Below the pieces are notes generated by a model. The model did not search any database. It had not been told where the DNA came from and was given only the letters and a program-made list of their open reading frames with translations. Source: Escherichia coli (GTDB taxonomy: Bacteria; Pseudomonadota; Gammaproteobacteria; Enterobacterales; Enterobacteriaceae). From it: a DNA stretch of 64,000 nucleotides. The stretch lies in assembly GCF_009931435.1 (NCBI RefSeq), contig NZ_CP043414.1. One strand, given 5' to 3'. This document shows, piece after piece, positions 8,505 through 34,012 of this stretch. Every line of letters starts with the position of its first letter. The stretch's first letter is position 1. The position numbers and the translations under genes are program-made.

Positions 8505-11500
8505 TAAACCCAAAGAATCTATAAACCGAACAGGGTTTAATGGATATTTATACAGATTCCATTCACCTCTTAGCCCGATTGGATCCTGGGTGATATACCT
8601 CCCCTGTAGCGGGTCATAGTACCGGTTCCGGTTATAATACAGCCCCGACTCCTCATCGTGTTGCTGCCCTGGCAGACGGTACGGCTGGTGCATGTGATGC
8701 GAGTTTTCCTCATTCAGCAGGTTTCCCCACTCATCATACTCCCCGCTCCACGCCGTATTGCCGTCTTCGCTGATGAGCGCCAGCGGCAGGCCCCGGTGGT
8801 CGCAGTGATACAGATGCAGCGTGCGTGCCGGTGTGTATTCCGGCTCCACCTGTCTGGCCAGTTGCTCCACCGTCAGCCCGCACTGCGCAAGCCACGCCCG
8901 GCTTTCACTGCTCACGCGGTCTGCCCGGATTTCTTCCTCCAGCCTGTCCAGCATCCTCACAAGTTCTGCCGGGAACACCACACCGTGCCCGTCCTCACTC
9001 CCTTCCTGCTGCAGCTTCTCCGCCAGGCTCCGGCGCTGCGCTTTCTCCCGCTCGCCGTTCTCTGTTTCGATGCGGATGAGCGGCGTGAAGCTCCCAGGCT
9101 GGTAGACCGTCTGGATACGTGTGGTGTCGGTCTGTACCGTCGTCAGCCGGTCACCGTCCCACCCGTACCACGTTACCTCCGGTTTACGCGACAGCGACAT
9201 CCACCCCGTCAGGTCACGCTCCCGCCGCCATACCCGTTTCGCCATTCGCCGTCCCAGCGGGTCGTAGAGGTAGCGGCTCTCGACCAGTGGCTCGCCATGC
9301 TGTATCCGCGTGTAGAACACCAGGCGTGCTGGCTGTCGTAGTGGTAGTGGTGGGTCCGCTCGTCGTCCGTCCGTATCACACCCGCCGGGATGCGGTCCGT
9401 CTTCTCCGTCAGCCTGCCGTATTCATCGTGGCGGTAGACATAGTGCGCATCCTCCGCGATGCGGTTATCCGGCCACACTGTGAGTGTACTGTCCGGGTGC
9501 AGCTCCGGGTCCGGCAGCCGGTTGCCCGCCGGGTCCGTGGCATACGGGATGCGGATGTCCAGGTCCGGTGCGAGGGTGCGCACGCTCTCCAGCCTGCCCG
9601 TGGCACTGTAGCCGTATTCCCGCGTCTGTCGCGGGCCGCTGATGCGCACCAGGTCGCCGTTGTCATTCCACCCGTAGTCACGGTCATACACCAGGCTGTT
9701 CAGGTGCTGACTCTGTAACTGACCTGCGGGGGTGTATGTGCTGGTCAGTTCGTATGCGGAATTACTGCCTGCCATGCTGCCGAAGCTGCGCACCGTCTCA
9801 CGGTGCAGCCTGTCCCGCGTATACTCGACCAGCGGCGTCCCGCCCAGCTTCATTCCCGCCAGGTAACCGCTGCCATACGTCAGCCACTCCACCGGCGGCA
9901 GGCTGTCCGGCGTGACGCGGTTTGCCAGCCCCTGTTCGTTGTATGCCTGTTTCGTCTCATGCTGCCAGAGCAGTTCCTCCGTCTCCGGGTTATGCACCGT
10001 CTGGCGCTCGCCAGTCAGACGGCCCTTGTCGTCATAGCCATAGTGGACGGCAACACGGTGGCCTTCGCTCAGGTGGCTGATTTCTCTCAGCCAGCCGTGG
10101 CCATCATACTGCCACTGCTCTGCCGGTTCGCCGTTCACCGTGCGGTGCGTGATGCGGTCCGATTCGTCGTAGTGCCAGAGGGTGACAAGCCCCTCATCTT
10201 CACTCTGCGTGAGTTTTCCGGTCAGGTCATAGTGGTAACGTTGCGTCCGCCCGTCAAAGCCGCGCTGCTGTACCAGCCGGTCCAGCGCATCGTAGGTAAA
10301 CTCACTTCGGCTGCCGTTCTCGTTAGTCAGCGTGGTGACACGTCCGGCAGCATCATACTCCATACTGCGCGTCAGCCCGCCCTGCGTGGTACTGACCGCC
10401 TTTCCCCACGCATCGTACTGTGTCTCACTCCGGTTGCCATCCGGGGTGATGACGGCGGTCAGGTCGCCTGCGGCGTTGTACTCATACTGCGTTTCACGGC
10501 CCTGTGCGTCTTTCACCGAGGTTAACCGGCCACGGTTGTCATAGCGGCGGTAAAGGCTGATACCTTCCTCGCGGTGAACCGCCGTCATCTGGCCGAAGCG
10601 GTCGTATTCATAGCGGGTCTGGTAGCCCGAGCAGTCGGTGAAGGCCAGCAACTGCCCGTAGCGGCTCCAGGTCATCTGCCGGGTGCTGCCCGTCGCATCC
10701 GTTGTCGTCGCCGGTAACTCACTGTGCGGATTATCATAAGCATACCGGATGACGTCCCCGCTGCGCGATGTCTCCGTTACCAGCCTGTCCCGCTCATCAT
10801 ACGCCCGGCGGCTCTCCAGCCCGTCCGGGGACACCACCGCCGTTAACTGGTTCCCGTCGTTATAGTAAAATTTCGTCTCCCGCCCGTCCGGCGTGGTGAT
10901 ATCCGTGATATCGCCGGACACCACATTCAGGCCGTACTCTGTCCGCCGTCCCGCCGCGTCCGTCTGTGCCGTGAGCCTTCCTGCCGCGTCATACCCGCTG
11001 TGCGTGACGCTGCCGTCCGCCAGTTCTTTTTTCACCACCCGCTTCAGCCCGGCCCCGCCTTCTGTATGCAGCACCTCTCGCCGGTTCAGGCTGTCCGTGA
11101 TGGTGATGCGGTCCTGCTCATAAAGATAGCGATAGCTTAACCCTGCCGGGTTCAGCTGCTCCACCACCCGCCCGGTATCGTCGTAGCGGTAGCGCATCTC
11201 CGGCCTTCCCGCATAACGGTGCCCCACCATCCGGCCCGGGTGCTGCGCGTCATACGTGAAAGCGCGCACCTGCGTATTGCTGCGGTCATATACCGCCAGC
11301 AGTTCACCGGCTTCCGTATACGTGTAACGCGCCAGTGGCGCACCGGGCAGATTCTCCGGGTATGCCGGGTCGTGCATCAGCCACACCGCCGAAAGACGGA
11401 TGCCCCTGTCGGGGCCGTATTCCGTACCGGGCAGTGTGTCGGGGAACGCTGAGGCTGAGAGAGGGCGGGAACGGTCAGAAGAAGATAGCGAAGAGGTGCG

Positions 11501-12277
11501 GGCCTCTTCCGCACGCTGCGCCTGCGTGGTCAGCACCAGACGGAACTTCCGCCCGGCACCGTCCGTCACGCTGGTGATTTCCCCAGCCAGGTCACCGGCG
11601 GCCTCACGCCGGTACGTCAGCGTCCGCCCGAAGCGGTCCGCCAGCCCGGTAAGCACCCGGTACGGCGGCAGCGGCGCTGGCAGTACGTCCTCAGCACCCG
11701 GCACCCGCTCACTCCACCCCAGTATCCACCACGACCCCTGTGCGCTGTTGGTCGCCAGGTAAAGATGCGGGCTTAACCGGATATCCGGCGGCAGCGCCCC
11801 CCACAGTCGCGCCAGCGTGTGGCCGTCCGGCTGCGCTGCCTTACCACCGCGCACCAGCCACATTGACTCGCTGCGGCTGTACACCGCCTCCCCCGGCAGC
11901 AGCGGCTCAAAGTGAATGCTCCGCCCGCCGTTGTCGTTGAGTATCAGTGCGTCATCACGTAGCTGTAAGCGGATATCCGAAGGCGCTTTCCAGCCGGGGC
12001 CGAAAACGCCCACCGGGGCAGGCGTCCTCGTCCGGTAGCTGCTGTAGGTGCGGGAGAGAATGAACGGCAGCGGGCCGGGCAGCGCAAGGTCCGTCTCGCC
12101 GGGCAGCACCTTCGCCCCCAGCAGCGGATTTACCGGGTTGCCCGAAGTCATCCCGCCCGGACACACCGAGCACGCCACGCCGGTGGGCGCGCCAATTCTT
12201 ACACCTGCCGAACCCTGGACAATGGGACCGCCATACTGAGTCATATCTCCCTGACGCGCTGCTGGTTTTCCGCTCAT
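8025..12277 (-). CDS. rhsE: Rhs-family protein (PAAR-like N-terminus, YD-repeat core, variable C-terminal toxin domain); reading frame broken by an apparent 1-nt deletion near 9327
   Basis: ORF 9209-12277 (1022 aa) starts [25 protein letters not shown] with an ATG at 12275-12277 and runs through YD repeats to ...[13 protein letters not shown] 8025-9320 (431 aa) continues in another frame through ...[27 protein letters not shown] and the C-terminal domain. Symbol assigned by locus position only. Confidence 0.85.
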
Positions 12278-12343
12278 GATTCAATTCCTTCTTCTGTTTA
12301 TTTTTAATGCTTGTTTGTTACTGAATACCGAACAGGTACGGGA

Positions 12344-14452
12344 TCAGTACTCTCTCATATCCGGCGTATCCTGCTTTTCATCAGGGGTCTTCGGTGGGGA
12401 TTTCGAGGCTGCACAGTTCCAGTTAATCAACAGTGAGTCACCATTAACCTGCTCCTTACCCTGCAAATGAATTTTTGTGCCGTTGAGAAAAATTTGTCCG
12501 TCCTTAGTCAGCACCAGCCTTGCCTTACCACAGCAGAGTTCCAGATGCTCACCGGCGGAGTAAATCGCGGTCTGCCCGGTATCATCCTTTTTCGTTTTAC
12601 CAACGGTGAAGGTAACGTTATTTCCGACTTTGACGTCATAACCCAGCCCGACCATCAACGATTTATGCAAACCGATCTGCGAGGACTGCATCAGGGCCAC
12701 CGAGGTGTTCATAATGCCACCTACCGTCGTCTGATACGCCACGCCCACAGTCAGCGCACGAACAAGTCCAATCGTTTCCACCTGAACAGAGCCCACTTTA
12801 ATGATCTGGTTACTGCCCACCGTCTCTATCTGGTTAACGCCCACCGTCTGTATCTGATTGTTGGTAACCGCAATCACCTGATTGTTGCCGATGGTCTCAG
12901 CATGGTTGTTTATCACATCCGTGGTGCGGTTATTCAGCACCTCGGTGTTCATGTTCTTCTGCGCGTGGATGTAGACCTGTTCTTTCCCTGTCGCATCGTC
13001 AAACTTCAGTTCATTAAACCCGCTGCCCTTATAGGTTTTCGAACGAATGGTCATCTGCGTCTTTGTTCCCGGCAGGCTGCCGGGGGTGCGGTTTTCCTGG
13101 TGGTAGGTACGCCCCATAATAATCGGCTGGTCCGGATCGCCGTTGAGGAAGTCCACAATGACCTCCTGACCCACACGCGGTATCGCCAGGTTACCAAACC
13201 CGGTGCCTGCCCACGCCTGTGCCACACGGATCCAGCATGAACTGTCCTGGTTTGACGGGTTATAACGGTCCCAGTTAAATTTCACCCGCACGCGGCCATG
13301 TTCATCACAGAAGATTTCTTCTCCTGCCGGTCCCGTCACGACGGCGCTCTGCGGGCCATCCACCAGCGGTTTCAGCAACGGCTGTGGCCGCCATGTTCTG
13401 TCTGCCGGTATTACCGCAAAGTGGTTATTCAGCGTGGTACCTGAACCCCTGCGTCCCGGCACCGCCTGCGGCTGCTCGCCGTGCAGTTCACTTGCCACCA
13501 CCTGCCATTCCCGGTTCAGGTTCGCCTGCGGATGCCCCGTCAGCGCAATTCGCCGTCCCGGCCATATCTCCGGAGAACGGCTTGTTCCGCGCGCCACTTC
13601 TGCGTTGTTTCGCCAGCCATCCATCTGCCAGCGGGCAAAGTTCTGCCCGTGGGCACCCTTGAAACGTCCGGGGTAGTCATACACTTCATACTGTGTGCGC
13701 TGGTAATCCTGGTACTGGCCTTCCTGATCAAAACGCCCTGCCCAGCCGGGTCGTTTAAAGGTGTAGTCCTTGGTCACCACGGAAGAAGGGCGGATTTGTG
13801 CGCTGTAGCGGAACTGGCTGATGCATAGGGTGCTCACCTCGGTACGGGTGTTCGGATTCCAGGGGATCTCAAAGGACTCCGGCAGATAACGCACGGTGTC
13901 GCACAGGACCAGGCTCTGGTCGGTACTTTTTTGCGCGTGCTCCTCATAAAAGAAGATGCCTTCCTCCGCCGCCATCCGGCACAGGAAATCGTAATCGGTT
14001 TCGCCGTACTGGACACAAAACTCACGGGAAGGATGCGGCTCGCTGAACAGCGGACTCCACTCGGTCACCCCGTTTTCTTTCAGGATCGTCGCGAGTATGC
14101 TTTCGATGTCCTCATTCTGGAAGATACGGAAGTTCTGGCGCAGCCCTGTGCGCCACAGCGGTGGGCACACCTTCATGCTGTACAGCATCTGGTTTTTGTC
14201 GTTCTCCCCCAGTTCAAACCAGGTCACCACACCTTTTACCCGGCGCTGTACGTCATCGCCCTGCCATACCGTCAGGTAGGCCATTTTGTCGAGGATCTGC
14301 GGAAATTCAAGGGAAAGAAACTGCTGACTGACCAGAGAAAGGTCGAGGGAAAAAAGTGAAGAGAGTGACTGGGTGAGATGAAAGGAAACCACCGCAAACG
14401 CGTCCGGTGGCAGGCCGTCCACTTCCAGCGTGAAACGTAATCCGGTTGACAT
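12344..14452 (-). CDS. vgrG: Type VI secretion spike protein VgrG
   Basis: N-terminus MSTGLRFTLEVDGLPPDAFAVVSFHL... is typical of VgrG; gp27/gp5-like middle region and C-terminal repeats (VINNHAETIGNNQVIAVTNNQIQTVGVNQIETVGSNQ); start set at the ATG at 14450-14452 with GGAGG upstream; ends 66 bp before the Rhs start. Confidence 0.9.
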   Translation of the reverse strand: MSTGLRFTLEVDGLPPDAFAVVSFHLTQSLSSLFSLDLSLVSQQFLSLEFPQILDKMAYLTVWQGDDVQRRVKGVVTWFELGENDKNQMLYSMKVCPPLWRTGLRQNFRIFQNEDIESILATILKENGVTEWSPLFSEPHPSREFCVQYGETDYDFLCRMAAEEGIFFYEEHAQKSTDQSLVLCDTVRYLPESFEIPWNPNTRTEVSTLCISQFRYSAQIRPSSVVTKDYTFKRPGWAGRFDQEGQYQDYQRTQYEVYDYPGRFKGAHGQNFARWQMDGWRNNAEVARGTSRSPEIWPGRRIALTGHPQANLNREWQVVASELHGEQPQAVPGRRGSGTTLNNHFAVIPADRTWRPQPLLKPLVDGPQSAVVTGPAGEEIFCDEHGRVRVKFNWDRYNPSNQDSSCWIRVAQAWAGTGFGNLAIPRVGQEVIVDFLNGDPDQPIIMGRTYHQENRTPGSLPGTKTQMTIRSKTYKGSGFNELKFDDATGKEQVYIHAQKNMNTEVLNNRTTDVINNHAETIGNNQVIAVTNNQIQTVGVNQIETVGSNQIIKVGSVQVETIGLVRALTVGVAYQTTVGGIMNTSVALMQSSQIGLHKSLMVGLGYDVKVGNNVTFTVGKTKKDDTGQTAIYSAGEHLELCCGKARLVLTKDGQIFLNGTKIHLQGKEQVNGDSLLINWNCAASKSPPKTPDEKQDTPDMREY

Positions 14453-15272
14453 AGCAACCTCCGTGAAAATGAATAATAATCCGCACATATTGCATGTACA
14501 ACATGTCGGACGGATGAGATAAGCGAGTCGACATCTGGCGTTACCGGGGAATATCAGAAAAATGTCATGGTTATGTGATGATTTAGTCTGGGATTTTACT
14601 TCAGAGAAACGGGTGTCTGTTTAGTCAACAAAATAATCACAAACGCAACGGATGGGTTCTCGACGTTATTCACGACAGGCTCGTACATTACAGCGAGTAA
14701 TAAAAAACCTGATATGCAAAGTCAAACCAATATTCATAATGTCTTTTTATTCACAAAAATAAATAATTCAATAACAATCATTGAAATGAATGATGGTTTG
14801 TATAAGGAATATACGCTACCGCCCCACCCTGATAACATGATCTGCACATTGCCATCTTAACGTCGTTAAACACTGGCTTAATAGTGGATATTTCAAATTA
14901 GGAATTTATTAAATTCACCTGATGAATATCATAAGCAAATAGCATAGAAAATAATGACAACTCCCCCGAGGGGACCATTTCCAAAGCACTGCAACACCAC
15001 CTGGTGCCCGGATGATCTTGCTTCAGTGGTAAGAGTACCTGATTCATTGTTCCCAAAATGGTGTTTTCCCCTGCCCCTCCAATAACGTGCAGCTCTCACG
15101 TGATAATCTATTGATTAGGTTATATTAAGAATCAATATTTGAAATACATCCATTTTCTTGAATAAATCAACATATTTATTTATCAATTGCTGTTTTAGCT
15201 CTGACTCATCAAACTCTCCATATTTTTCCTACAGAAAATCGCGAATAAATACAGAGAACGCCATTTATCCTT

Positions 15273-32835: not shown

Positions 32836-33656
<821 letters not shown>

Positions 33657-33700
33657 GTTGCATACAACGGCAACAGGAAACCGCGCCCTGAGTTTCTCAA

Positions 33701-34012
<312 letters not shown>

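Follow-up and report, generated by a model that had tools for sequence, protein, structure and literature searches.

The closest described systems are the core proteins of the RHS elements of Escherichia coli (the RhsA-E family, NCBIfam NF041261), which are VgrG-linked Rhs polymorphic toxins of the T6SS. When such a system is intact, VgrG carries the Rhs cage and the cage cleaves itself at a DPxGL motif. In the published Rhs cage structures the toxin is enclosed by a single continuous beta-shell. We have examined an rhs gene of this kind in a stretch of 64,000 nucleotides of the E. coli contig NZ_CP043414.1 (hereafter the window). It has in common with these systems the GC-rich YD-repeat core, the RHS-associated core with DPxGL at its end, the AT-rich variable tip, the vgrG upstream and the immunity gene downstream, and a flanking ISAs1 (H-repeat) element; its genomic site, between yncH and nhoA, is the one occupied by the RhsE element in E. 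coli K-12. It differs from the RhsA-E family in that the open reading frame (ORF) of this assembly is broken, at position 989 of the core profile, by a 1-nt deletion that is private to it. The features of the locus are as follows.

12344..14488, minus strand: vgrG (T6SS spike), in the same position as the vgrG of CP057959.1
9209..12277, minus strand: N-terminal ORF of rhs, 1022 aa, matching NF041261 (RHS_core) over profile positions 1-988
9326..9327, minus strand: site of the 1-nt deletion, CAGCAC^GCCTGG here and CAGCACCGCCTGG in relatives
9320..9324, no strand assigned: Dcm motif (CCAGG/CCTGG), read from the sequence, 2 nt from the deleted base
8571..9325, minus strand: remaining Rhs core in the native frame, matching NF041261 positions 990-1261 and TIGR03696 and ending in ...YITQDPIGL
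8025..8570, minus strand: variable C-terminal toxin domain, 181 aa plus stop codon, with a drop in GC and an HEFAH motif (H-E-x-x-H in the family)
7563..8012, minus strand: putative cognate immunity gene, 149 aa, directly downstream of rhs, with a hydrophobic N-terminal segment and without a family match
6110..7400, minus strand: decayed ISAs1/ISEc1 (H-repeat) element closing the Rhs locus, 97% identical to an intact ISEc1

The order on the minus strand is therefore vgrG, rhs (8025-12277), the 149-aa ORF and ISAs1/ISEc1 (about 6110-7400), with ansP-yncG-yncH flanking one side and yddH-nhoA-yddE-narI the other, and the locus has the canonical make-up of a vgrG-rhs-immunity module of E. coli, here at the yncH/nhoA site. 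The VgrG assignment rests on TIGR03361 (VI_Rhs_Vgr; 628 bits, E 8.5e-189). The called product has 702 aa, with its start at 14452, and an exact-product look-up of this 702-aa sequence found nothing on record. It is this vgrG, lying directly upstream of rhs, that links the gene to the T6SS within the window, the T6SS core cluster being located outside it. The shell was recognised by NF041261 in both parts of the broken gene (2129 bits for the N-terminal part, for a cutoff of 2000, and 594 bits for the C-terminal part), and the latter also contains the RHS repeat-associated core domain (TIGR03696, 85.9 bits) with the PxxxxDPxGL self-cleavage motif. Behind it come a variable C-terminal domain, the 181-aa AT-rich tip with its HExxH motif, and the 149-aa ORF, in the putative roles of toxin and immunity protein. 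The GC content is 0.61-0.68 in the core and 0.36-0.39 in the tip and the immunity gene, falling from about 0.62 to about 0.37 in the tip; a GC-rich core followed by an AT-rich tip and immunity gene is the classic Rhs signature.

An initial annotation of this DNA had placed a 1-nt deletion near 9326-9327, splitting the Rhs frame within the core, and the ORFs, an alignment and the NF041261 profile all bear it out, although the strand had been missed, the gene being on the minus strand. There, the sequence CAG CAC [C]GC CTG lacks one C at 9326/9327 (GG to G on the plus strand), and this missing C, CAGCA[C]CGCCTGG, is the sole difference in a 200-base alignment to the intact Rhs core of E. coli CFSAN061769. 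The 1022-aa ORF is made up of 984 native codons (12277-9326) and 38 out-of-frame codons that run into a premature TGA at 9209-9211. The C-terminal ORF covers 8025-9320, its open frame extending further upstream and its stop lying at 8025. With the N-terminal part on positions 1-988 of the profile and the C-terminal part on 990-1261, exactly one profile position is lost at the junction; since the two parts meet in this way, the two ORFs are one gene cut at one point and not a chance juxtaposition. Shell and toxin are thus not joined by an uninterrupted ORF in the sequence as given. Re-insertion of one C yields a single ORF of 1417 aa without any other stop (the 1453 aa expected earlier came from summing the two overlapping ORFs).

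A way to glimpse what this protein would deliver is to look at its tip, which corresponds to residues 1237-1417 of the restored protein (window 8028-8570). The family of the tip is large and unannotated, with 714 representatives at E<=1e-3. Across 48 homologues H106, E107, H110, E137 and E145 are invariant, that is, an H-E-x-x-H followed by two downstream Glu residues. The Pfam family Peptidase_M91 (PF14891), which contains the NleD-like zinc metalloprotease effectors, was matched by 24 of 48 family members at E<=0.001 (the best at 5.6e-10) and by the domain of the window itself at E 0.08-0.11 only. The tip shares with these effectors the HExxH and the conserved downstream Glu residues, but it sits on an Rhs cage and is not a T3SS effector, and the window domain reaches no better than E~0.1 and is left without a Pfam assignment. 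Its AlphaFold (AF2) model is confident, with a pLDDT of 89. Foldseek found no significant neighbour of this model in the PDB (best E 0.06), and the weak top matches were all zinc proteases (zincins). In PADLOC and NCBIfam there was no family for either the toxin or the immunity protein, a sequence search of the PDB returned the generic Rhs linker only and a word-indexed search for homologues yielded nothing beyond close fragments from E. coli. Taken together, the tip is predicted to be a small HExxH (NleD/M91-like) zinc-metallopeptidase toxin, from a family distantly tied to Peptidase_M91.

Many E. coli contigs (1108 blocks) encode an identical copy of the 149-aa protein just after an Rhs gene, also at other loci such as the T6SS main cluster. 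Its signal-like hydrophobic N terminus suggests export and hence a periplasmic target for the toxin; an immunity protein that looks exported is at least a hint in that direction. In the intact system the predicted metallopeptidase would be released into neighbouring cells and the exported putative immunity protein would protect kin.

How widespread is the deletion? Comparison with the intact Rhs cores of other strains, the check that the initial annotation had proposed, shows that it is private to this assembly and gives a restored protein 100% identical to an intact allele. None of 5,426 complete E. coli genomes contained an exact copy of the 80-mer across the deletion; homologues of its region were located at 9,213 places, in 3,704 genomes, and each match listed spans 81 bases. 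Per E. coli genome, the 80 bases around the site have a median of 2 occurrences and a maximum of 6. A 40-mer with the deletion had no matches in species-representative genomes or in metagenome contigs, while the intact 41-mer, used as a positive control, was present in 116 metagenome stretches. Exact-product look-ups of the 1022-aa N-terminal part and of the C-terminal candidates of 431, 406 and 391 aa were empty as well, which is uninformative, since NCBI pseudogenes carry no product and contigs built from short reads may be interrupted within the Rhs core. The restored 1417-aa protein is 100% identical to an Rhs protein of four E. coli assemblies (QMP78688.1, QMS26455.1, HDV3957984.1 and HDV3967613.1), and in CP057959.1, which encodes the first of these, the intact allele is seen at the same yncH-nhoA locus. 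The extra base is present too in two draft contigs of the same clone (L006 and L007).

CP057959.1 has the same locus, with the same decayed ISAs1, and its DNA is 99.9% identical over 16 kb. In an alignment of 16,254 bases, 14 substitutions and a single gap set it apart from the window; this gap is the rhs deletion, where the four intact-allele assemblies have CC and the window has C. All 15 differences fall in multi-copy elements, eight in ISAs1 (6411-6804), six in vgrG (13109-13809) and the gap in the Rhs core, and about 11 kb of single-copy flank are identical. The substitutions are of a paralogue type. Seven of the eight window alleles in ISAs1 are those of the canonical ISEc1 copy; all six in vgrG are found in some other vgrG copy among those compared, and five of the six are the allele of the T6SS-cluster vgrG1 of strain 2013C-4282, although a search for an allele identical to the vgrG segment gave no 100% match. 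These patches in vgrG and ISAs1 reflect either gene conversion or effects of assembly or polishing across paralogues.

When each segment of the 64 kb is compared with the nearest relative available for it, the rhs gap is the only indel. Two short-read-derived relatives align without any mismatch or gap over 16,420 bases (L018) and with 1 mismatch and no gap over 18,438 bases (L021), another relative (L002) has 2 mismatches and likewise no gap over 9,095 bases, and the gaps of a fourth (L004) are confined to an intergenic stretch that L018 covers gap-free. The closest complete RefSeq genome, 2020CK-00188, is recorded as a linear chromosome broken exactly at the Rhs locus, so that it is of no use as a reference for the deletion site. 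In this record (NZ_ABACVG020000001.1), whose ends (L002/L003) correspond to about 6642-14542 of the window, a gene for a TPR protein and an Rhs fragment are found where the window has vgrG.

In the initial annotation the gap was put down either to pseudogenisation of the effector or to an error in base calling, and these two readings are still the only credible ones. Sequence alone does not separate artefact from mutation, and we lean slightly towards the artefact: the gap at 9326/9327 is somewhat more probably an uncorrected error of a long-read consensus, the base being missing only from the assembly. The deletion would have arisen in the long-read consensus of a multi-copy Rhs core, beside a Dcm-methylated CCWGG, short-read polishing would have failed to mend it and the organism would make the intact 1417-aa effector. 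This account starts from four observations, namely the deletion, its privacy to the assembly, the flawless ORF obtained on restoring the base, and a context of repeats with a Dcm motif nearby. From there we infer the sequencing platform and the mechanism of the error. As to the platform, the draft contigs of the same lineage (L006 and L007) end at the Rhs, vgrG and ISAs1 repeats that the window spans, and an assembly that crosses the repeats where these contigs end implies long reads or a hybrid approach. As to the mechanism, Dcm motifs accounted for about 70% of the ONT consensus errors in Enterobacteriaceae under default models (PMC6591954), and only 2.1-2.8% of positions are as near to a Dcm motif as the deleted base. 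According to the description of Polypolish, errors in repeats often survive short-read polishing (PMC8812927).

Several of the observations above point the same way. Apart from the gap, the restored ORF carries no lesion and its product equals the Rhs protein of four other assemblies, and in the collections searched the deleted 40-mer is absent and the 80-mer has no exact match. The site is part of a multi-copy repeat and is 2 nt away from a Dcm motif, and every difference from CP057959.1 is in repeats, the unique flank being identical; with almost all of the substitutions being paralogue alleles, this is the pattern expected of noise from cross-paralogue assembly or polishing. Furthermore, a divergence close to zero in unique DNA (0/16,420 and 1/18,438) leads one to expect few real mutations in a gene of 4 kb. 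On the other hand, the assembly is otherwise very accurate, with this single indel in 64 kb against its nearest relatives, and the site is a CC dinucleotide and not a long homopolymer, located just outside the Dcm motif, so that it is not a textbook systematic error. The paralogue-type substitutions could equally stem from real gene conversion, which would mean true divergence of the strain at this locus. Finally, the Rhs genes of E. coli are often truly broken, and the adjoining ISAs1 is genuinely decayed.

The latter two facts deserve attention, as they also speak for the other credible explanation, a genuine and very recent loss-of-function frameshift that killed the effector and spared the immunity gene, to which we would give a little less than an even chance. 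The ISAs1 element is disrupted by two nonsense changes, at about 7126 and 7079 (TGG>TAG and CAA>TGA), and by the loss of 1 nt at 6204. CP057959.1 has all of these lesions as well, and they therefore represent inherited, real decay, showing that the locus does decay. Between this element and yddH there is an AT-rich ORF of 240 aa (5271-5993, minus strand) without a family match, which is called with 211 aa in relatives and which has a 1-nt indel near its 5' end in comparison with 2020CK-00188. Broken Rhs genes are common in the species. A second RHS core of CFSAN061769 is annotated as 'frameshifted' by PGAP, and three further assemblies (L009, L013 and L014; about 8527-12475) have a second Rhs gene, following the same immunity gene downstream, that is broken up into ORFs of 481+231+569 or 481+818 aa. 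The first (481-aa) break being common to these three independent assemblies, it marks an inherited Rhs pseudogene. Strain EDL933 likewise has interrupted Rhs genes, rhsF and rhsG (PMC7216683). Such E. coli pseudogenes resemble the gene described here in having a core disrupted by a frameshift or an insertion, with the immunity gene kept; but the 481-aa breaks are inherited, whereas the break in the window is found in one assembly only and is without secondary decay.

If the mutation were real, this lack of secondary decay would make it a very recent event. The base is, after all, absent from the sequence as given, in a context that is not the typical homopolymer one of sequencing errors, and the 64 kb contain no other indel. 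Against it, there is no second lesion, the protein with the base put back matches the sister allele at 100% identity and the deletion is in no other sequence searched. At this divergence the number of real indels expected in 4 kb is, by our own estimate, about 0.01-0.1, and both the location in a repeat and the proximity to the Dcm motif would have to be coincidences. As for the consequences, about 70% of the YD shell would be left in the truncated product, together with the N-terminal region, and its last 250 or so shell residues would be gone, as would the toxin and the RHS-associated core that bears DPxGL. Deprived of the end of the shell, the core and the toxin, the cage could neither close nor carry cargo, which would leave a dead effector. 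The intact downstream immunity gene would still protect against toxin-carrying kin.

Very improbable in comparison is a gene that is split and still functional. Translation would reinitiate at an in-frame ATG, at 9200 or 9245, to give a free C-terminal piece of shell with the toxin, which would work in trans or complement the N-terminal part. The version of this idea starting from the ATG at 9200, in which a separate plug-plus-toxin polypeptide of a naturally split Rhs effector would assemble with, or ride on, the truncated N-terminal cage, seems to us just as far-fetched. The ATG at 9200 does lie 8 nt past the premature stop (9209-9211), with a G-rich stretch before it, but there is no convincing ribosome-binding site, no homologue has such a split at this site and a fragment lacking the VgrG-binding N terminus would not be loaded; nor does a cage in two pieces agree with the continuous shell of the known structures. 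Recoding, by programmed -1 ribosomal frameshifting or transcriptional slippage, would restore the full-length protein, and a -1 shift right after the CAC codon would indeed recreate the wild-type QH-R-LV, but we reject it as the least plausible of all, for His-tRNA is unable to re-pair in the -1 position (GCA), the frame overlap (9211-9422, 211 nt) contains no slippery site (neither an X XXY YYZ heptamer nor a homopolymer of >=5 bases), the homologous Rhs copies examined have intact frames, with the extra base in all those listed, and the deleted form was found in no complete E. coli genome (80-mer) and in 0 metagenome stretches, against 116 for the intact one.

Whether the long-read artefact that we slightly prefer or the recent mutation is correct, the gene family, its genomic arrangement and the type of lesion are all familiar, and the case is ordinary under either of these main readings. 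With a real deletion, the strain would very recently have given up a single member of a set of interchangeable T6SS Rhs toxins while keeping the immunity gene, which is routine Rhs turnover. An artefact would mean that single-base frameshifts in the multi-copy Rhs cores of long-read assemblies need read support before they are given a biological reading. For annotation, the gene is best treated as a probable intact 1417-aa effector pending verification. Elsewhere in the window, at about 32836-34012, an IS3-family element is located between two hicB fragments, annotated as 'frameshifted' by PGAP in a collinear relative (L004).
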